From the IMG/VR virus record IMGVR_UViG_2778261535_000001, positions 1-7,239 of that record: DNA of 7,239 nucleotides; one strand, written 5' to 3'. Below are positions 1-7,239 of this stretch, piece after piece (the stretch's first letter is position 1; the number at the start of each line of letters is the position of its first letter). This stretch comes from a virus. Taxonomy: Duplodnaviria > Heunggongvirae > Uroviricota > Caudoviricetes. The translations under genes and the position numbers were made by a program. The notes beneath the pieces are model-generated. The model did no database searches, was not told where the DNA came from, and worked only from the letters and a program-made list of their open reading frames with translations.

Positions 1-828
1 ATTAACGTCCCATGCAGGTCGCTTGCTTGTAACTAGTTCGCCATTAACAGGAATGACTTTTCCTTCGACCAACCATTTCCCGTTAATATAGGTATTCCTG
101 AAAAACGTTCTGGAGGTAAAATAAGTTTTACCCTGCATATCAATAATTCTAGATGAAATAGCAGCCTCAAGTGATTCAAAAGCTAAAGAATCATTTGTAA
201 CACCATCACCTACAGCACCAAAATCTTTAGGGCTAACTGTGTCACGCATCTTATCCTGGAACGTTCTGTATACTGCTCCAGAACCATACTGAATAAACCA
301 ACCAAAACCACCAACAACTCCAGCGATTGCAGCATCGACATAATTACGCATTGAGCGATTATTTACAGCATCCTGCTCAAGTGATGGATCTGCAAGGTTA
401 GAAATTTTGTTTTGCTTTGCATCGTAATATTTTGCAAGCAAAGATGGTTTCATCAATGCGCGTCTGAACCACCCAAAACATTGCTGGATCAGCATCGTCA
501 GGTAGTCAAAGGCATCTTCATGCACTTCGGGGAAAAACTTTCCCTGATTGCGGAGGTCTGTCTCCTGCACTACATCAAGCACACGATCTATCGTAATTAG
601 CCAGCCAACAGCAAGCGGCGACGGAAGAACCACAGAACCGCCACTATAAGTGCCCGCCCCTGTTACCGTATAACCGGTATCCAGAACCAATTCTGTTACG
701 TTCCCGTTCAAGTCAGACACCTGAACAACCAGGTCGGATTTTTTGAAAATACGGAAGGTATACGGAAATGATGTCGTAACGCCGTTACCGGTGTATTCGT
801 TGTGGTCAACTTCGGTTGAGACCGTCAT
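1..828 (-). CDS. Tailspike / tail fibre protein, N-terminal 276 codons (gene continues beyond window start)
   Basis: Not in the ORF track because no stop lies in the window; hand translation of the minus strand from ATG 828..826 is open for 276 codons down to position 1. RBS GGAGA sits 6-7 nt upstream (plus 836..840). N-terminus MTVSTEVDHNEYTGNGVTTSFPYTFRIFKKSDLVVQV fits the pattern of the T7 gp17-type particle-binding domain (Y-x2-[DN]G-x4-F-x3-F ... VV). A DAVNNRSMRNYVD motif follows, then SPKDFGAVGDGVTNDSLAFESLEAAI, typical of the first rung of a pectate-lyase-like beta-helix receptor-binding or depolymerase domain. Confidence 0.75.
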   Translation of the reverse strand, partial: MTVSTEVDHNEYTGNGVTTSFPYTFRIFKKSDLVVQVSDLNGNVTELVLDTGYTVTGAGTYSGGSVVLPSPLAVGWLITIDRVLDVVQETDLRNQGKFFPEVHEDAFDYLTMLIQQCFGWFRRALMKPSLLAKYYDAKQNKISNLADPSLEQDAVNNRSMRNYVDAAIAGVVGGFGWFIQYGSGAVYRTFQDKMRDTVSPKDFGAVGDGVTNDSLAFESLEAAISSRIIDMQGKTYFTSRTFFRNTYINGKWLVEGKVIPVNGELVTSKRPAWDVN

Positions 829-931
829 GTTAAATCTCCAGATAGTCGCAGCACCCGTTGCGCCGCATATCTGGTTATTCTATTACCTGAAAAACCACAT
901 ATGGATAGAAAGACTGTAAATACGAATAGAT

Positions 932-948
932 ATTACCTTTCAGGTAAT
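932..948. promoter_or_regulatory. Operator-like 17-bp palindrome, site A (ATTACCTTTCAGGTAAT)
   Basis: Perfect 7-bp inverted arms ATTACCT / AGGTAAT around a 3-bp centre. Lies in the divergent intergenic region between the tailspike start (828) and the small + gene (1024). Near-identical copies at 2051..2067 and 2144..2160; an isolated left half-site ATTACCT at 882..888. Confidence 0.5.
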
Positions 949-985
949 TTGCAAAACGTGCTGGATAGCAAACAAATTATTTGAT

Positions 986-1003
986 ACTGTATAAATATAC
1001 AGT
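986..1003. promoter_or_regulatory. LexA (SOS) box overlapping a candidate promoter
   Basis: ACTGTATAAATATACAGT contains a perfect CTGT-N8-ACAG core (987..1002) with an AT-rich centre, matching the enterobacterial LexA consensus TACTGTATATATATACAGTA. A -35-like TTGATA (981..986) abuts it and a weak -10 TATTGC (1004..1009) follows at 17-nt spacing. The box is about 20 nt upstream of the start codon at 1024. Confidence 0.7.
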
Positions 1004-1023
1004 TATTGCATGGAGAAGATAAG

Positions 1024-1281
1024 ATGCAGCAGTATCACTATCCACTGGAAGACGGATTTACCGAAAGGATTCACACGCCGGGAGGCGTCAGATCACTGGT
1101 GGAGGGATCGCACTTGATGAAATTACTCCGGGATCTCGATAAGGATGGATTTAATGTCGATGGCCCACTTGCCGAACTGACTGCACTGATTAACTACGTC
1201 ACCAGCTCACAGATGTCTATGCAGGATCTGCAAACACATCTCGACTATTGTGCCGAACAACTACGAAAACAAACCACATAA
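1024..1281 (+). CDS. Small antirepressor-like protein (85 aa), stand-alone paralogue of the Ant C-terminal domain
   Basis: ATG at 1024 with RBS GGAG (1012..1015) 8 nt upstream; the ORF track's TTG at 1006 is judged a less likely start. Stop TAA at 1279..1281. Residues ~17-80 (HTPGGVRSLVEGSHLMKLLRDLDKDGFNVDGPLAELTALINYV...DLQTHLDY) align with the C-terminus of the 2429..3139 protein (HSPSGVLGLTESSLLMNLLNQLQEDGHDVSGAAAELTTMFCYI...DIQTHAEY) at roughly 40-45% identity by eye. Confidence 0.65.
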   Translation: MQQYHYPLEDGFTERIHTPGGVRSLVEGSHLMKLLRDLDKDGFNVDGPLAELTALINYVTSSQMSMQDLQTHLDYCAEQLRKQTT

Positions 1282-1303
1282 AGAAAAGGCCGCAAGAGCG
1301 GCC
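1275..1303. terminator. Bidirectional intrinsic terminator between convergent genes
   Basis: Perfect hairpin GGCCGC-AAGA-GCGGCC at 1288..1303. On the minus strand it is followed by TTTTCTTTATG (complement of 1275..1287); on the plus strand by the moderately T-rich TATCGTTTCGCTTTG. It sits between the + stop (1281) and the - stop (1303..1305). Confidence 0.55.
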
Positions 1304-2031
1304 TATCGTTTCGCTTTGTGCTCGTCCCAGCACGTTTTGCACCATGCCATTAAGCCATCCGCATTTTGATTATTAGGGTAAAAACTGGTTCGTTTTCTGC
1401 GGACATTACAAATTGGGCACCACTTCATATGGCGTGTATTCTTTGGGCCATCGAGACACCTTGCACACCACTTAGTCAATCCATCTGGATTTTTTGACGA
1501 TTTCCTGAATTTTTCATATGGAAGGTTTATTCTGCATCGCAAACACTGCTTGCGGGCACTTGAAACTTCGTTAGCTGATTCTTCTTTTGACGGCGATACA
1601 GAAGGTATTCTTGCTGGCTCTGATACTGCCTGAGGTGCTTTTTTAGGTGACTGAGACGATATGTCATCACCAGGGAATCTGTCATGATATGCCGGACGCG
1701 TTGACACTCCAGGTGGAAGCTCTGCTGTAAATGGCTTTGGCTGAATCAGCGCCCTCTCTTTTGCTGACTCCTGCTGTTTATAATATGTCTGGATTACCGA
1801 TATATCATAAGCAGGATGTACAGAAATATCCGGCGCATTACCTCCAGTTTTTTGAAACTGAGTGGAGGTGTGGTCTATCACCTGTGTACGATTAATCGTT
1901 ATTTCTCCATCTTCGGTCTTTATCGTTTTGCGATGATTAACGACTGTGCGATCAGAGACCTTAGTCCTGTTCTGGTTGATAACGTAAATAATCACCGTAA
2001 CAACACCAACAACTATCCAGAAAACTTCCAT
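1303..2031 (-). CDS. Membrane-anchored protein with two tandem C4 zinc ribbons (242 aa), function unknown
   Basis: ATG at 2031 with RBS GAGGAAAA upstream; stop TAG at 1303..1305. One N-terminal hydrophobic helix (FWIVVGVVTVIIYVI) followed by a cluster of basic residues, which by the positive-inside rule puts the C-terminus in the cytoplasm. A long Ser/Pro/Lys/Glu-rich low-complexity linker follows. The basic C-terminal ~80 aa carry two repeats of C-x2-C-x22-C-x2-C, each with DGLxxWCxxC (CLRC...NPDGLTKWCARC and CPIC...NADGLMAWCKTC). The gene looks AT-richer than its neighbours by eye. Confidence 0.7.
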   Translation of the reverse strand: MEVFWIVVGVVTVIIYVINQNRTKVSDRTVVNHRKTIKTEDGEITINRTQVIDHTSTQFQKTGGNAPDISVHPAYDISVIQTYYKQQESAKERALIQPKPFTAELPPGVSTRPAYHDRFPGDDISSQSPKKAPQAVSEPARIPSVSPSKEESANEVSSARKQCLRCRINLPYEKFRKSSKNPDGLTKWCARCLDGPKNTRHMKWCPICNVRRKRTSFYPNNQNADGLMAWCKTCWDEHKAKR

Positions 2032-2050
2032 TGCTTTTCCTCACAATAAC

Positions 2051-2067
2051 ATTACCTTAAAGGTAAT
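2051..2067. promoter_or_regulatory. Operator-like 17-bp palindrome, site B (ATTACCTTAAAGGTAAT)
   Basis: Same ATTACCT / AGGTAAT arms as site A. Lies 20-36 nt upstream of the start codon of the minus-strand zinc-ribbon gene. A degenerate fourth site with only the right arm (CTTTCAGGTGAT) is at about 2074..2085. Confidence 0.5.
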
Positions 2068-2143
2068 ATCTTGCTTTCAGGTGATCAAGCGTTAAACGCA
2101 ATCAACCAAATACGGTTGATTTTAATATTTATCCGCGTTTATC

Positions 2144-2160
2144 ATTACCTTTGAGGTAAA
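2144..2160. promoter_or_regulatory. Operator-like 17-bp palindrome, site C (ATTACCTTTGAGGTAAA)
   Basis: Arms ATTACCT / AGGTAAA (one mismatch). Directly abuts the -35-like TTTACA at 2161..2166 of the candidate plus-strand promoter for the ant leader. Centre-to-centre distance from site B is 93 bp. Confidence 0.5.
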
Positions 2161-2189
2161 TTTACATCGCACTCCTCTTGTGCCATAGT
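2161..2189 (+). promoter_or_regulatory. Candidate sigma70 promoter for the leader/ant transcript
   Basis: TTTACA (2161..2166), 17-nt spacer, CATAGT (2184..2189). Identified by eye only; the -10 is weak. Confidence 0.3.
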
Positions 2190-2193
2190 AATC

Positions 2194-2272
2194 GGGCACT
2201 GGCAAAATCCAGTGCCGGGATTGGCGTCCCGAGTTACTAAGTGGCGCATACCACGCCAGACGTGGTTTTTTT
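2194..2272 (+). ncRNA. Candidate structured leader or small RNA upstream of the antirepressor gene
   Basis: Perfect 8-bp hairpin GGCACTGG-CAAAAT-CCAGTGCC (2195..2216), a second small hairpin GGGA-TTGGCG-TCCC (2217..2230), then an intrinsic terminator. No credible ORF. The region also contains an approximately 19-bp imperfect direct copy (2236..2254) of the ant translation-initiation region (2409..2427). Confidence 0.3.
2250..2272 (+). terminator. Intrinsic terminator/attenuator within the ant leader
   Basis: GC-rich hairpin ACCACG-CCAGA-CGTGGT followed by a run of seven T (2266..2272). It is strand-specific: on the minus strand the U-tract would precede the stem. It lies 156 nt upstream of the ant start codon. 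Confidence 0.5.
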
Positions 2273-2428
2273 ATGCGTTAAGCACAGCTATATCCGAATT
2301 ATGGTGGGCTGGGCAGGGGTCCGAAAGGACGCCGGTACCACTTAGGCCGGTACGCCAACCTTGTCCAGTTCACCACCAGTAATTGGCGTTGCGGTGGTGA
2401 TTAAAATCACTAAGTGGAGATAACCACC

Positions 2429-3139
2429 ATGGCTAATGCTCAAACTGCCATCTTCAAATTTGAATCTGTTAACCCTATCCGTTCCATCATTATCGATGGC
2501 CAACCATGGTTTGTAGCCCAAGACGTTTGTAGTGCGCTGCGTATCCAAAACGTCACCCAAGCACTTGAAAAACTGGATGATGATGAAAGGTCTATGTTCA
2601 ACATAGGGCATGAACATCGTGCAATTTTTGACAGCCGAGTAAAAGAGATCAACATCATCTCCGAGTCAGGCCTCTACACACTGATCCTCCGCTGCCGCGA
2701 TGCAGTAACACCAGGCACTATCCCCTACCGCTTTCGTAAATGGGTTACAGGTGAGGTTCTTCCTCAGATCCGCCGCACCGGAAGTTACATTAAAAACTCG
2801 CTCCCGCAGGAAGAACGCATAAAGATGGTTGCCGACCAGGTAGCCAACGCCACAGCATCAGCAGTGATGCAGGCAATGAAGGTAGAGAACAAAACCTACA
2901 GCGCCCCACTGAAGCCCGGCTACCGCAGCCTGATTCATTCGCCGTCTGGTGTTCTCGGCCTGACGGAGAGCTCACTGCTGATGAATCTGCTGAACCAGTT
3001 ACAGGAAGACGGGCACGACGTATCGGGCGCGGCGGCGGAACTGACCACCATGTTCTGCTACATCGTCGGTGTGAGTAAATGCCTGCGTGATATCCAGACC
3101 CACGCGGAATACATCAACGACAAGGCAGGGTTCTTCTGA
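2429..3139 (+). CDS. BRO-N domain antirepressor (Ant-like), 236 aa
   Basis: ATG at 2429 with RBS GGAG (2416..2419) 9 nt upstream; the ORF track's GTG at 2414 is judged less likely. Stop TGA at 3137..3139. N-terminal half carries the hallmark BRO-N motifs (FKFESVNPIRSIIIDGQPWFVAQDVCSAL, ALEKLDDDE, ISESGLYTLIL, FRKWVTGEVLPQIRRTGSY). The C-terminal ~80 aa are homologous to the 85-aa protein at 1024..1281. Confidence 0.88.
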   Translation: MANAQTAIFKFESVNPIRSIIIDGQPWFVAQDVCSALRIQNVTQALEKLDDDERSMFNIGHEHRAIFDSRVKEINIISESGLYTLILRCRDAVTPGTIPYRFRKWVTGEVLPQIRRTGSYIKNSLPQEERIKMVADQVANATASAVMQAMKVENKTYSAPLKPGYRSLIHSPSGVLGLTESSLLMNLLNQLQEDGHDVSGAAAELTTMFCYIVGVSKCLRDIQTHAEYINDKAGFF

Positions 3140-3156
3140 CGGGCGGCGGTGGCATT

Positions 3157-3185
3157 CGTTAAAAACAAGGCCGCGAAAGCGGCCT
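3157..3185 (-). terminator. Intrinsic terminator for the minus-strand virion-gene transcript (also caps the + ant transcript)
   Basis: Perfect hairpin AGGCCGC-GAAA-GCGGCCT (3168..3185) with a GNRA-type loop. On the minus strand it is followed by TTGTTTTTAAC. Its stem is almost identical to the hairpin at 1288..1303. Confidence 0.55.
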
Positions 3186-3204
3186 GTGACATGTCACGCT
3201 CACG

Positions 3205-3345
3205 TTATGACAAGCCTATGTACCCTGCTACACCAGATAATATCAAAATAACTGCAACAGCAAATTCGCCATCGTCAATGATACATTTACGGTTCATAAC
3301 GCCAAGTGCAACAAGCGCAAACACAACAAGAATAAAAGCAATCAT
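3205..3345 (-). CDS. Small hydrophobic protein, 46 aa, two predicted transmembrane helices (not in ORF track)
   Basis: Minus-strand ATG at 3345 preceded by AAGGAT, which overlaps the TAA stop (3355..3357) of the upstream 824-aa gene; stop TAA at 3205..3207. Hand translation MIAFILVVFALVALGVMNRKCIIDDGEFAVAVILILSGVAGYIGLS shows two hydrophobic segments split by a charged turn (NRKCIIDDGE). The terminator follows immediately. Confidence 0.4.
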   Translation of the reverse strand: MIAFILVVFALVALGVMNRKCIIDDGEFAVAVILILSGVAGYIGLS

Positions 3346-3354
3346 TTCTCATCC

Positions 3355-5829
3355 TTATTGCGGAGTGACATCCTGTGGTCGCCACCAGTATGTCTGGTTA
3401 AACTCTTTCTTCGAACGTTGCTCCATTTTACGCAAATAACCTGGTGAAAAATACTCCTGCATCTGGTTAAAGATCATGTGATCGAGAGCCGCCTTTAAGT
3501 ACCAGAGATTCGCACCTGGCATCAGACCTTTCCCCAGCTTAACCAGATCACCACCAGTCTGCTCATTCTTCCCTTCCACAGCATTTAACGGTATGCCCTG
3601 AGCAATCTTCACTACGTCATCAACCAGACCAGCTACCGGGCCAAGCATCGACGCCAGCGCGCCGCTTCCGTACCTAGTGTGATCTGACAATAAAAAGTCA
3701 CCGTAAAGGCCAAGACCACCACCTTTCAGTAGAGCACCAAGCCAAAATTTAGCAGCATCTTCTCCTGTCATCTCGCGAGGATTACGACCAGACGCAAGGT
3801 CGTTAAGTTGCTGCGACAAAGCGCCAAGAATGGTCGTACTGGCAATAAACGTCGCAATATATGCCGCACGCCCACCAGCAGACGGCATACCCATAGCGCG
3901 TGACCAGTGACGCATAACCACCGAGATAGGGAACGATTTAAACAGGAAAACACTTCTCGTTAATTCACCTTTCCATGTTCCACGCTGAATACCAGAACCG
4001 GTTATCAGTTGCTCACGTGCTCCCGGTGTAATAACAGCCATATCAACTTCTTCAGTTACGGCACCGAGCAGTTTACGCATTGCCTCAAATTTCACGCGTT
4101 CAGGCTCACCAAGATGTTTAACTGCTGAATCAGGGATACGCATAATGCTTTCCGGTGTCAGCATCGTATTATTACCGTTCCCCCAGTCCTCCTGTTGCGC
4201 CAGCTTCCATACGCTCCAGTCTGTGTCAGTAATCCCTTTGCTTTTCAGGATACGAAAATCAGAGTCATCGAGGCTACGAAGGTCTGGTGTCCGTGACACT
4301 ACTTCTCCCAGGCTTCCCATCATGGTTACGCCATAGGCGCGCTTGTGCGCATCTGACCATGCTGTAAGCCCACTGGCACGCATTACCGCCGTTGCCGCCC
4401 AACGAGACACTGACGGCCCCATATTATCCATCGCCCAGCGGTTAACGCTGCCAAGTAGAGATTCCATCGCCAGACCAGCGCGGCGCGCCCGCGCAAGTTC
4501 TGTACGGTTCGTTGGGTCCATAGCTTCAAGCTGGTTGCGGAATAACTGGTTCATTGGAAGGTTGGTCACCTTCGCAGACAGATACATGGTTCCAAGATCA
4601 GAGAACGATGATAGCAACGCGGATCCGAGTCTGCTGGCAACCAGCCAGTTGCGGATATTGTCAGACCATCGCGCGATGTGCGGATTCGCTACAGGCTGTG
4701 TCTTTCCGGAAATAAAGTTGTACAGATTCTCTGTGTTGTTCGCCAGCCGCTCGACTTTACCGGTTTTACTCGGGTTAGCTGTTGCCGTTTCTGCCTTCAC
4801 CTGATCAAGAAGAGAGCGGAAAACATGATCTGGGTTTGGGCCATATGTTTCCACCAGTGCAATATCTTTACTGATACCTTCCAGGTGACCGACCATGATT
4901 TCCCATAGAGAGCGATCGCCATAAAGTTGCTGATATTGCAGATAGGAATCTGCATCTTTGAAATGTATCTGTCGTGATGCATTACCACGGTTAGCACGTG
5001 CGCCGGAAATTCGCATTCCGGTATCAGTAAGCTTATTCAGCCCACCAGTAGCGATCGTGTTATAAGCCTCTCCAAGAAATGCAGACAACTCGGCATCGTT
5101 CATCAGTTGTCCATCGGCTCGGATATAATATTTGCGATCCAGCTTACCTATAACATCGCTAACCCACTTATCCTTTGATACCGCCCCAACCTTTTCCATA
5201 GAATGATGTTGAGGGATCCCCCAGTTTTCGAGATAGCCAATGTCCCCACCAGCATCATTAAACCGGCGGCGCAGCAGCTCTGTAACTTCTCTCCACGCCT
5301 TAGCACCTTTTCTTGCTTTAGCATTGCCAGTATTTTGCCCCCGCATTTCATATACCAGGTCACGTACGCCCGCTTCATCTTCAAACAGACCAAAAAAGCG
5401 AGGATCAACTGCTTCGAATGCCTCCTGCAATTGACTCAATGCATAATCACGAGTGGCTTTTGTTCTGGACTCAACAGAGAGGAAATTCGATTTACCGTCT
5501 GCATTAAAAGCAATAGTACGGTTAAGAGCGCCAAGTTTCCCATCAGCCCCTTGATAGCTATTGATAAATTTATCCAATCTCTGACGTGCGGCTATAGTGA
5601 GGGCCACACGACGTTTCTTTAATGCCGCTTCTCGCTGTAATTCTTCAGATGCCAATTGTGCTGCACGATACAACCGCTCTGATTCGGAAAGTTGTCGCCA
5701 CGACATCGGGTCATCACGAGCAATGGAGCGCATATTTCGATAAATGCGGTCTTCAATGTTCTGTATTTCTCGCGCCGTTAACGTGCGCTGCGCCGCCTGC
5801 TGGACCGCTTGTATACATTCCTGTCTCAT
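3355..5829 (-). CDS. Large virion-associated protein, 824 aa (putative internal virion / DNA-ejection protein)
   Basis: Long ORF with ATG at 5829 and RBS GAGAGG 9 nt upstream; it starts 5 nt after the stop of the upstream gene, so the two are translationally coupled. It lies just upstream of the tailspike region, where podoviruses such as P22 and T7 encode ejection or core proteins. Gly-rich C-terminal segment. No motif I can assign with certainty; the function is by position and size only. Confidence 0.45.
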   Translation of the reverse strand: MRQECIQAVQQAAQRTLTAREIQNIEDRIYRNMRSIARDDPMSWRQLSESERLYRAAQLASEELQREAALKKRRVALTIAARQRLDKFINSYQGADGKLGALNRTIAFNADGKSNFLSVESRTKATRDYALSQLQEAFEAVDPRFFGLFEDEAGVRDLVYEMRGQNTGNAKARKGAKAWREVTELLRRRFNDAGGDIGYLENWGIPQHHSMEKVGAVSKDKWVSDVIGKLDRKYYIRADGQLMNDAELSAFLGEAYNTIATGGLNKLTDTGMRISGARANRGNASRQIHFKDADSYLQYQQLYGDRSLWEIMVGHLEGISKDIALVETYGPNPDHVFRSLLDQVKAETATANPSKTGKVERLANNTENLYNFISGKTQPVANPHIARWSDNIRNWLVASRLGSALLSSFSDLGTMYLSAKVTNLPMNQLFRNQLEAMDPTNRTELARARRAGLAMESLLGSVNRWAMDNMGPSVSRWAATAVMRASGLTAWSDAHKRAYGVTMMGSLGEVVSRTPDLRSLDDSDFRILKSKGITDTDWSVWKLAQQEDWGNGNNTMLTPESIMRIPDSAVKHLGEPERVKFEAMRKLLGAVTEEVDMAVITPGAREQLITGSGIQRGTWKGELTRSVFLFKSFPISVVMRHWSRAMGMPSAGGRAAYIATFIASTTILGALSQQLNDLASGRNPREMTGEDAAKFWLGALLKGGGLGLYGDFLLSDHTRYGSGALASMLGPVAGLVDDVVKIAQGIPLNAVEGKNEQTGGDLVKLGKGLMPGANLWYLKAALDHMIFNQMQEYFSPGYLRKMEQRSKKEFNQTYWWRPQDVTPQ

Positions 5830-5834
5830 TTAAT

Positions 5835-7239
5835 TTAACCTCTCAAGAAACACGCCACAGCGACATCAAACAGGCTGGAATCCTGTATTGCCTGCTCACT
5901 TTCCTTGTTCGCTTCATCCAGTACTTCACGAGCTCTGCGCGATTGTGAATTACCATCATCATCCAGCACGGTGATTATCATGTCAGGTGATTCAAGCAGC
6001 GAGTCTTCAGCTATGCGCAGATCAATATCTCCTGCCTGATCTGCCATCATTTTTTGTCCTGCCTGTTGCAATATTTTATCAGGCTCAAAAGGAGCTACTT
6101 CGTCTGGCGTCCTGACCTCTGCTGTTTTATAGAATGAAACAGCCTGAGCATTAAGTTCACTTTCTACCTGCTGTCGCCGTGCCAGTTCTGCTCGAGCTTC
6201 AAAAAACTGACCGCCAGGCTCATGCGGTGCCAACGCGTTACGGGAAAATTCTAGGCGTTCTTGTGCCTGCCGGATTAGTTGGTCAATATCGCGAAGTCTG
6301 ACCTGTTTATCTGATCGAGCACGAGATAAAGCCTTACCGCTACCGGTTGGCTCTTCTGCAAGAATTTGTGCGCGCTGTTCAGTGAGATTTTCAATAATTC
6401 GTTGGCTATTAGCGATTTCAGACTGGTAAACCTGTCTATCGCCACGCGGCAAAAGCTGCGCGGCCTGTTCTTCAAGCAACCGATTTTCTATAGCGCGCGC
6501 CGTTACTCCATCATCTACAGATGACAGAGCCTCATTAACTGCCTGAGACAGCAGACTCTTGCGCCCAGGAATTTCACTGAAAGATGCAGACTCAACAATG
6601 CTGGCAACGTCTACAGGTCTCCCCTGGCTAACATCAGACATGGCTTTTCGCAGAGCCTGAATGTGCGAATTACGCGAAAGCACGTTGATCGGCACGCCGG
6701 GAGCAATATCAATTTCAGCATGATGAGCGGCATTCGCCGCCAGTGCAGCATCGATATCAACTGGTGAAAAATTTGGTGCGCTTGTAGACTCGCCGCGAGA
6801 GTTAATAAATCTGCCGACACCACCAAACGCCACCCCAAGAACAGCATCAATAGCAATTGCCTGTCGATCCAACACATCATACTGGTTAGCCATTTCGCTA
6901 TAGCCACCATCACGAAGCGTTTTTGCAGTAAGCCCACGCTGTGCCATACCGAACGCAATATTTGTACCTGCGGCATAGGCAATATCTGGCGTTGCACGTA
7001 CTGCTGTTGCTGCGGCGCGTCGCACTGAACTTTCACCCGTCCGCGCAAGCTGAGCCGCCACACCTTCCGCCAGCGCACCACCAGCACGTAACCCGAAGCT
7101 CATAGGGATCAGTGTTCCGGCACCAGCAGTAATACCCTGCACTAATCCCGCTTCCTGCGCCGTCCTGAAATCAACACCCTGTGCTGTCAGCCGTTCAAAC
7201 TCAGAAAAACCCTGTAGCGAAGTTACCGCCGCAGCACCT
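5835..7239 (-). CDS. Large virion-associated protein, C-terminal 467 aa (5' end beyond window; putative internal virion / ejection protein)
   Basis: The frame stays open from the window edge (7238) to the TAA at 5835..5837; the track's start at 7142 is only an internal GVG-context GTG codon. Ala/Gly-rich N-proximal part, then a charged region predicted to be coiled-coil (QLIRQAQERLEFSRN...ARAELARRQQVESELNAQ). Co-oriented and coupled with the 824-aa gene. Confidence 0.45.
   Translation of the reverse strand, partial: GAAAVTSLQGFSEFERLTAQGVDFRTAQEAGLVQGITAGAGTLIPMSFGLRAGGALAEGVAAQLARTGESSVRRAAATAVRATPDIAYAAGTNIAFGMAQRGLTAKTLRDGGYSEMANQYDVLDRQAIAIDAVLGVAFGGVGRFINSRGESTSAPNFSPVDIDAALAANAAHHAEIDIAPGVPINVLSRNSHIQALRKAMSDVSQGRPVDVASIVESASFSEIPGRKSLLSQAVNEALSSVDDGVTARAIENRLLEEQAAQLLPRGDRQVYQSEIANSQRIIENLTEQRAQILAEEPTGSGKALSRARSDKQVRLRDIDQLIRQAQERLEFSRNALAPHEPGGQFFEARAELARRQQVESELNAQAVSFYKTAEVRTPDEVAPFEPDKILQQAGQKMMADQAGDIDLRIAEDSLLESPDMIITVLDDDGNSQSRRAREVLDEANKESEQAIQDSSLFDVAVACFLRG

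Follow-up and report, generated by a model that had tools for sequence, protein, structure and literature searches.

Genes and signals at the end of the late virion operon

The 7,239 nucleotides analyzed here (the window, in what follows) are positions 1 to 7,239 of the IMG/VR virus record IMGVR_UViG_2778261535_000001, and our subject is an open reading frame (ORF) of 46 codons that lies directly behind the gene for an 824-amino-acid virion protein, here called the gp17-like protein. Across most of its length the window is 97-98% identical to phages HEMP4, phiv142-3 and phiV10. It belongs to an epsilon15/phiV10-like temperate podovirus of the genus Uetakevirus, and its source is probably an E. 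coli prophage. On the minus strand lies the last part of the late virion operon, from a gp16-like gene through the gp17-like gene to the 46-codon ORF, and a Bro-N antirepressor-like gene is found on the plus strand at 2414..3139. The features on which the analysis turns are these:

3355..5829, minus strand: gene for the gp17-like virion protein of 824 amino acids (PhiV10p20, PHROG 684), stop codon TAA at 3357-3355
3346..3357, minus strand: junction of the two genes, with the gp17 TAA at 3357-3355, the Shine-Dalgarno sequence AAGGA at 3356-3352 and a spacer of 6 nucleotides to the ATG
3205..3345, minus strand: gene for the 46-amino-acid membrane protein, predicted to be a helical hairpin, TAA included; ATG at 3345-3343, TAA at 3207-3205
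3186..3197: perfect 12-bp palindrome GTGACATGTCAC, which forms the right boundary of the variable slot described below, whatever the cargo
3158..3185, minus strand: intrinsic terminator that closes the late virion operon, with the stem-loop AGGCCGC-TTTC-GCGGCCT at 3185-3168 followed by TGTTTTTAAC

The terminator hairpin (3185-3168) has 7 pairs, of which 6 are G-C, and is followed by TGTTTTT. A terminator is annotated at the same place in phiV10, and one is also annotated in epsilon15. A preliminary description of the window, made from its letters, had put the terminator immediately after the ORF; the terminator is there, but it is not directly adjacent, as the palindrome lies between the ORF stop codon and the terminator stem.

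Conservation and annotation of the 46-codon ORF

The length of an ORF is by itself weak evidence for a gene, since the window contains 65 ORFs of at least 30 amino acids. It is because the 46-codon ORF is conserved that we consider it real, and sequence comparison indicates that it is a genuine protein-coding gene. Its product is MIAFILVVFALVALGVMNRKCIIDDGEFAVAVILILSGVAGYIGLS. Among 5.8 billion proteins searched, 42 clusters were found, none of them less than 74% identical, from E. coli, Salmonella, Citrobacter and Hafnia. When 1.84 billion representatives were searched exhaustively with a profile, just 5 clusters at the 50% level were returned, all of the same family, and no distant relatives with a known function. 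A length of 45-48 amino acids is retained in the most distant homologues, down to about 45% identity. Pooled over 14 distinct nucleotide versions, the ratio of nonsynonymous to synonymous substitution rates (dN/dS) is 0.23, the variable columns are distributed 18/10/35 over codon positions 1, 2 and 3, and the synonymous excess is significant in three pairs (binomial P 3e-3 to 9e-5). Synonymous and nonsynonymous changes are thus far from equally frequent, and the ORF is conserved; equal frequencies and a lack of conservation were part of what the preliminary description had named as evidence against a gene. Some gene callers predict a form of 55 amino acids by starting further upstream, at an ATG that in the E. 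coli type is not in the reading frame; for this reason we take the 46-amino-acid product to be the conserved one.

That the ORF is non-functional, a chance reading frame or the shadow of a gene on the other strand, is extremely improbable. In favor of this explanation, the antisense strand also has an open frame over the whole ORF, with a similar dN/dS (0.21). This antisense frame, however, lacks a conserved start, and the open stretch measures anywhere from 14 to 198 codons depending on the locus. The sense ORF keeps its start, Shine-Dalgarno sequence, length and stop to about 45% identity and in two genomic contexts. The antisense ORF of 96 amino acids in the window (3149..3439, plus strand) was accordingly rejected as a shadow frame, given the inconsistent boundaries between loci.

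The preliminary description had called the ORF unannotated, which is true of the ORF track it was made from but not of the public record. The product matches PHROG 7892 over its full length (expectation value, E, 5.5e-33; residues 1-46 to profile positions 1-46 of 46) and is 98% identical to PhiV10p21 and 85% identical to SPN1S_0020. Annotated orthologues are PhiV10p21, SPN1S_0020, WP_000559990.1 in RefSeq E. coli genomes and genes of 65FD/66FD, where the label, as also given for PhiV10p21, is "putative integral membrane protein". PhiV10p21, SPN1S_0020 and WP_000559990.1 are the same gene in the same place after the gp17-like gene, with the same terminator next, and show no material difference from the gene in the window. 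PHROG 7892 members sit directly downstream of the gp17-like gene with the terminator beyond. The exception is one distant member, which follows a different virion protein of 1129 amino acids and a 92-amino-acid transmembrane (TM) protein resembling Tyrion gp19. No function is assigned to any member of PHROG 7892, and literature searches on locus tags and accessions found nothing. The gene itself is therefore already annotated as hypothetical; what is new here is the architecture of the slot in which it lies, the evidence for selection and mobility, and the hypothesis that its product acts in exclusion.

Some weak database matches were set aside. Those to DUF5367 (best E 0.005, below the cut-off) were treated as hydrophobic noise. 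A PDB profile match to a designed helical repeat protein had no matched stretch and was rejected as compositional bias. A Foldseek search against viral models returned the protein's own orthologue alone, a helical hairpin being too generic for a fold search.

Predicted structure and expression signals

The protein consists of two hydrophobic segments, residues 1-17 (mean Kyte-Doolittle value 3.04) and 28-46 (2.19), separated by the charged turn NRKCIIDDGE. AlphaFold2, run on the family alignment, predicts helices at residues 2-19 and 25-45 with a mean pLDDT (the program's per-residue confidence score) of 92. The preliminary description had likewise seen a two-helix membrane ORF at the end of a virion operon, with two hydrophobic segments around a charged turn, and both the coding constraint and the predicted hairpin bear this out. 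The best-conserved region is the turn and helix 2 (N18 R19 K20, I22 I23, D25 G26 E27 F28, S37 G38 x A40 G41 Y42 x G44). The small-residue pattern of helix 2 is typical of tight helix packing. The C-terminus, ...GYIGLS, coincides with the end of helix 2 and has no charged tail.

The ribosome-binding site was also recognized at the outset as overlapping the upstream stop codon, and AAGGA does lie across the TAA of the 824-codon gene. Among diverged loci the Shine-Dalgarno sequence is retained as AAGGA, GTGAGG or AGGGA. Synonymous-site conservation was used to look for a promoter hidden at the 3' end of the gp17-like gene. Over the final ~35 codons synonymous divergence falls only mildly (0.23-0.27, against a mean of 0.46), and a lower value occurs elsewhere in the gene. 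This dip would be explained equally well by an embedded signal or by recombination beside the cassette. Within the ORF, a promoter-like site (3305..3278) and a weak terminator-like hairpin (3274..3255) were dismissed, as such sites occur at chance frequency in the scans. On the plus strand, the Bro-N gene (2414-3139) has no T-run past the shared hairpin on its own strand (window 3140-3200), and its transcripts may read antisense into the 46-codon ORF and the gp17-like gene.

The small size and hydrophobicity of the protein are like those of small membrane toxins, and the preliminary description had listed a membrane-active, toxin-like peptide among the possibilities. Such a peptide, of the type I toxin or abortive-infection kind, would depolarize the membrane when made, and the antisense read-through conceivable from the convergent Bro-N gene would suit it. 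We nevertheless regard a toxin as quite improbable. Typical type I toxins have a single helix, whereas this protein has two helices and a conserved charged turn; no Hok/Gef, Ldr, TisB or other toxin family was matched; the late structural gene to which the ORF is coupled is strongly expressed; and the scan detected no promoter-like site for an antisense transcript.

A slot with exchangeable cargos

The comparison covered 80 viral contigs, in each of which the gp17-like protein matches that of the window with at least 94% identity. In these 80 loci homology ends right after ...CAATAAGGA and restarts at GTGACATGTCAC and the terminator, and the interval between the gp17 stop codon and the palindrome is occupied by five different cargos:

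25 of 80 loci: the 46-amino-acid hairpin; 3 copies are frameshifted at the C-terminus and 1 is truncated
36 of 80 loci: a two-TM hairpin of 57 amino acids (GTG start) and a multi-pass membrane protein of 98 amino acids
11 of 80 loci: a lipoprotein of 137 amino acids
7 of 80 loci: a small TM ORF and a lipoprotein of 126 amino acids (ZX5 type)
1 of 80 loci: the lipoprotein of 126 amino acids alone

Different cargos are found behind virtually identical gp17 proteins (~100% in the locus scan), and the other cassettes likewise begin 9-10 nucleotides past the same gp17 stop codon. Cargo genes have a G+C content of 38-39%, compared with 50% in the flanking genes, except for the gene of the 98-amino-acid protein (46%). 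For the 46-codon gene the figure is 38.3%, against 49.5% for the gp17-like gene and 50.6% for the gene upstream of it. Between E. coli and Salmonella copies, synonymous divergence is 0.29 in the ORF and 0.73 in the adjoining gp17-like gene, which places the movement of the cassette later than the divergence of its flanks. The flanks of the slot were found in 476 of 5,426 complete E. coli genomes, and 54 of these 476 carry the 46-codon cassette.

Beyond the 80 loci, the slot of epsilon15 holds gp18, a two-TM protein of 64 amino acids whose gene overlaps the gp17 stop codon, and that of Enterobacter phage Tyrion holds gp19, a two-TM protein of 103 amino acids. Together with the 57-amino-acid ORF of phiv142-3, HEMP4 and BUCT711, these share with our gene the position, the two-TM hairpin design, and the palindrome and terminator that follow. 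No homology is detectable among the hairpins (46-amino-acid protein, 57-amino-acid protein and epsilon15 gp18; hhalign probability <1%), and we would class epsilon15 gp18, the 57-amino-acid ORF and Tyrion gp19 as positional analogues rather than demonstrable homologues. No small ORF follows the gp17 homologues of BcepC6B, Ab31, YA3 and YeP6; the next gene is a tail-fibre gene in BcepC6B and Ab31, and reverse-strand genes follow in YA3 and YeP6.

Several of the alternative cargos have features of their own. The ORF for the 57-amino-acid hairpin (locus L009, 5485-5658; also phiv142-3, HEMP4 and BUCT711) starts with GTG 10 nucleotides past the gp17 stop codon and encodes MFLIILSVIISGGLLFIDRYKYFLNPQTQAICWFIFVVQGVVLVASLIEGRPLIFTG. 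A Klebsiella phage has a version that is 79% identical. The records examined either leave the ORF without annotation or merge it into a coding sequence of 118 amino acids with a wrong start (phiv142-3 Orf12). The small ORF of the ZX5 type (L014, 5485-5647, with the same sequence in L004, which is ZX5) encodes 41 amino acids with one TM helix, and a second TM helix is present in the +1 frame past a run of five A residues; it may be a frameshifted two-TM hairpin, and all eight copies are identical. The two lipoproteins, 137 amino acids (L066) and 126 amino acids (L083, L014 and ZX5), are unrelated, with the lipobox signal peptides LISAC and LVGC, respectively. Their genes lie directly after the gp17 stop codon or after the small ORF, and they have no match in Pfam, NCBIfam or PADLOC. 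The 137-amino-acid lipoprotein was found in prophages only and in no isolated phage record.

The close attachment of these small genes to the gp17-like gene raises the question of a role in the lytic cycle. The gp15-gp17 block is the counterpart of the internal-virion/ejection proteins of podoviruses (reviewed in PMC8954989). The gp17-like gene is the last of this block, and in relatives SLT-domain proteins are encoded upstream of it, as judged by synteny. The most hydrophobic, glycine-rich parts of the gp17-like protein are C-terminal (residues 655-743). A hairpin made next to such a membrane-active protein might shield the inner membrane of the producing cell from it (self-immunity) or help to handle it before packaging, and the unrelated hairpins of other Uetakeviruses would then be functional equivalents. 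The start of a small TM ORF 0-12 nucleotides past the gp17 stop codon in all isolated Uetakeviruses examined, the overlap of the Shine-Dalgarno sequence with the stop codon, the C-terminal position of the hydrophobic segments and the mild synonymous dip at the end of the gp17-like gene all agree with a helper of this kind. However, virtually identical gp17 proteins are paired with hairpins that are not homologous, 12 prophages have a slot with a lipoprotein only, 4 of the 25 copies of the 46-codon gene are frameshifted or truncated, and the gp17 homologues of BcepC6B, Ab31, YA3 and YeP6 do without such a neighbor. In addition, the cassette has a foreign G+C content and a divergence history unlike that of the gp17-like gene. 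We therefore consider a lytic helper unlikely. The same observations (unrelated cargos behind virtually identical gp17 proteins, lipoprotein-only slots, and no counterpart in distant relatives) make an ejection-channel accessory, as had been suggested, improbable in the sense of an obligatory, specific partner. On these comparisons the 46-amino-acid protein does not appear to be part of the conserved virion machinery or a dedicated, co-evolving partner of gp17.

Small two-TM phage proteins expressed late also include the class II holins and pinholins, such as S68 of phage 21, and a holin- or pinholin-like role had been among the first suggestions. A holin, antiholin or pinholin-like modulator of lysis timing is very improbable here. 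It could draw on the sub-threshold match of the 98-amino-acid alternative cargo to a holin family (E 0.027, below the cut-off). Against it, a complete lysis cassette (membrane protein, holin, endolysin and Rz/Rz1) lies beyond the tailspike gene in phiV10, SPN1S and epsilon15, the phiV10 lysis genes p27-p30a being about 5.3 kb from the 46-codon gene. Furthermore, the 46-amino-acid protein lacks the charged C-terminal domain of the class II holins, none of 43 family members matched a holin family at E up to 1, and the slot also takes lipoproteins. The holin of the known lysis cassette is a different protein.

Another function for which the genus itself provides a model is lysogenic conversion, in which the protein would inhibit a host envelope enzyme and so alter a surface receptor. 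The epsilon15 inhibitor of the alpha-polymerase (Wzy), annotated as a two-TM protein of 66 amino acids, does exactly this, and Iap of Pseudomonas phage D3 is comparable; the receptors of these phages are O-antigens or capsules, and other conversion genes are present in their genomes. The hhalign probability of similarity to the epsilon15 inhibitor is, however, only 0.06%, and the 46-codon gene lies outside the conversion module, which is found beyond the tailspike gene. Moreover, family members from E. coli, Salmonella, Citrobacter and Hafnia prophages share at least 74% identity. The tailspikes of these prophages carry different annotations (O157 tail fiber, endosialidase, Salmonella tail spike), and their hosts by inference have different surface polysaccharides. 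Wzy proteins are serotype-specific. We regard conversion as improbable. The identity of at least 74% in spite of the differing tailspikes argues that the target of the protein is a conserved one and not serotype-specific.

The palindrome at the distal end of the slot

The palindrome was present at the distal slot end in all 80 loci, as an exact copy in 73 and with one mismatch in 7, and it also occurs in epsilon15, Tyrion, BUCT711 and ZX5 irrespective of cargo. It consists of the half-sites TGTGA and TCACA, which are 4 bp apart, and its internal TGA serves as the stop codon of several cargos. In Uetakeviruses it recurs at the ends of other transcription units, usually next to a terminator. Copies were located as follows:

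phiV10 (L089): 2262 and 19493
epsilon15 (L097/L007): 2142 and 7518
SPN1S (L098): 2174, 19662, 38653 and, with one mismatch, 26722

A copy follows the terL terminator in phiV10, epsilon15 and SPN1S. The extra copies in SPN1S are at the stop codon of the last early-right gene and, with one mismatch, at the stop codon of an Rz-like gene. The palindrome is absent from loci L099 and L100 and from more distant relatives, and no mention of its sequence was found in the searchable literature. Candidate roles are those of a recombination boundary, a protein-binding site or an RNA element.

A possible role in superinfection exclusion

The context of the 46-codon gene is best fitted by an exchangeable accessory cassette, moron-like and resembling superinfection-exclusion genes, an option that the preliminary description did not consider. 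A moron, as reportedly defined by Juhala et al. 2000, is an extra gene in a late operon. Patchy presence among loci with near-identical gp17 (25 of 80) and among E. coli genomes, and a deviant base composition, are both seen here. Of the promoter and terminator that a moron would have to itself the terminator is present; a consensus scan of the minus strand upstream of the ORF (3345-5900) found no sigma-70-like site, although a weak or factor-dependent promoter could escape such a scan.

Our tentative proposal is that the 46-amino-acid protein is an accessory inner-membrane protein that would block the entry of DNA from other, related phages, a reading that draws on position, patchiness, composition and predicted location and that we hold with rather less than even confidence. 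The helical hairpin of 46 residues would insert in the cytoplasmic membrane, its gene would be the final cistron on the transcript of the late virion operon, and ribosomes would start on it from the Shine-Dalgarno sequence that overlaps the gp17 stop codon. From the predicted hairpin and the coupling of the genes we infer the membrane location and the late expression, respectively. The gene is one of at least five non-homologous, AT-rich cargos for envelope proteins that recombination swaps in and out of a slot with fixed borders, the 3' end of gp17 on one side and the conserved palindrome and terminator on the other. In the inner membrane of the infected or lysogenic cell, the hairpin would act against DNA delivery by incoming related phages, with the conserved turn and the small-residue-rich helix 2 contacting a conserved membrane protein of the host or else the conduit formed by the ejection proteins.

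The closest parallel is SieA of phage P22, an inner-membrane superinfection exclusion protein that blocks DNA injection and whose gene lies between the ejection-protein gene 16 and the tailspike gene 9 (PMC10883804). It is present in 22 of 66 P22-like phages as three types less than 30% identical to each other, and mutations that escape SieA map to the ejection proteins gp16 and gp20 (PMC10883804). Similarly, the 46-codon gene has the last ejection-protein gene on one side and the antirepressor/tailspike region on the other, and the interval up to the tailspike gene holds accessory genes, among them an antirepressor. It is also patchy among close relatives, shares its slot with several unrelated types and encodes a protein with a predicted inner-membrane location. 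This shared position is what makes exclusion, in our estimate, the most likely job of the protein. The proteins themselves differ: SieA is 162-164 amino acids long, is predicted to have three TM helices, carries the motif FxRYPxEAxxFNK and has a promoter of its own, whereas the 46-amino-acid protein has two helices, lacks the motif and has no promoter-like site upstream.

Other exclusion systems offer looser comparisons. T4 Imm and HK97 gp15 are small inner-membrane proteins that block the entry of phage DNA (Cumby et al. 2012 and Lu and Henning 1989, as cited in PMC11436027), and Cor and Llp are exclusion lipoproteins. A slot that takes interchangeable inner-membrane proteins and lipoproteins recalls all four. 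Imm and gp15 resemble the 46-amino-acid protein in being small, membrane-anchored phage proteins. The HK97 gene is an extra gene among virion genes, reportedly a moron of deviant composition in the late operon with its own promoter, a promoter for which we found no counterpart here, and the 46-amino-acid protein matched no Pfam family above threshold.

Several observations weigh against a role in exclusion. We found no experiment or published datum on the function of the protein. Family searches revealed no sequence or profile similarity to SieA or to Imm-type proteins of T4 (SieA proteins were not compared directly), and searches of Pfam, NCBIfam and PADLOC gave nothing above threshold for the 46-amino-acid protein or the alternative cargos. 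Since no promoter was found upstream, the expression from the prophage that classical exclusion by a lysogen needs is unsupported, and from its tight coupling to a late gene one would expect the ORF to be expressed late in the lytic cycle, not from the prophage. A small TM ORF stands directly after gp17 in each of the isolated, plaque-forming Uetakeviruses examined (epsilon15 gp18, the 46-codon gene, the gene for the 57-amino-acid protein, the 41-amino-acid ORF of ZX5 or Tyrion gp19), and slots without a hairpin were seen in predicted prophages only. This ubiquity could reflect a function that is needed in the lytic cycle but evolves fast.

In a broader scheme, the hairpins behind gp17 would be a fast-evolving class of self-immunity proteins, co-translated with a membrane-active ejection protein, that also exclude incoming phages by way of the same contact. 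They would sit in a docking site that ends at GTGACATGTCAC, the palindrome being a recombination or protein-binding boundary for cassette exchange. We think this broader scheme distinctly unlikely as a whole.

If exclusion is indeed the function, the protein would be among the smallest phage-encoded blockers of DNA entry known and would give a first functional handle on epsilon15-like DNA delivery across the inner membrane. The slot would then be a natural panel of hairpins, a multi-pass protein and lipoproteins set against one conserved ejection apparatus. Prophages of this kind are present in about 9% of complete E. coli genomes. As relatives of phiV10 and SPN1S serve in detection and biocontrol, exclusion genes carried by prophages would affect host range in those applications. 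If exclusion is not the function, the gene is an ordinary small membrane gene, already annotated as hypothetical.

Other observations in the window

The lowest synonymous divergence within the 824-codon gp17-like gene is found not at its end but at codons 458-472 (approximately 4414-4458, minus strand), where it is 0.14 compared with a mean of 0.46 over 10 diverged homologues. This dip may mark an embedded element or a recombination hotspot. An ORF of 242 amino acids (1303-2031, minus strand) matches PHROG 6762 over its full length and has a C-terminal zinc-ribbon-like region with weak matches to endonuclease VII, HNH and Lar-like families. It is also found in E. coli VR50 (WP_000451763.1) and is missing from phiV10, and thus is another variable gene of the accessory region between gp17 and the tailspike.

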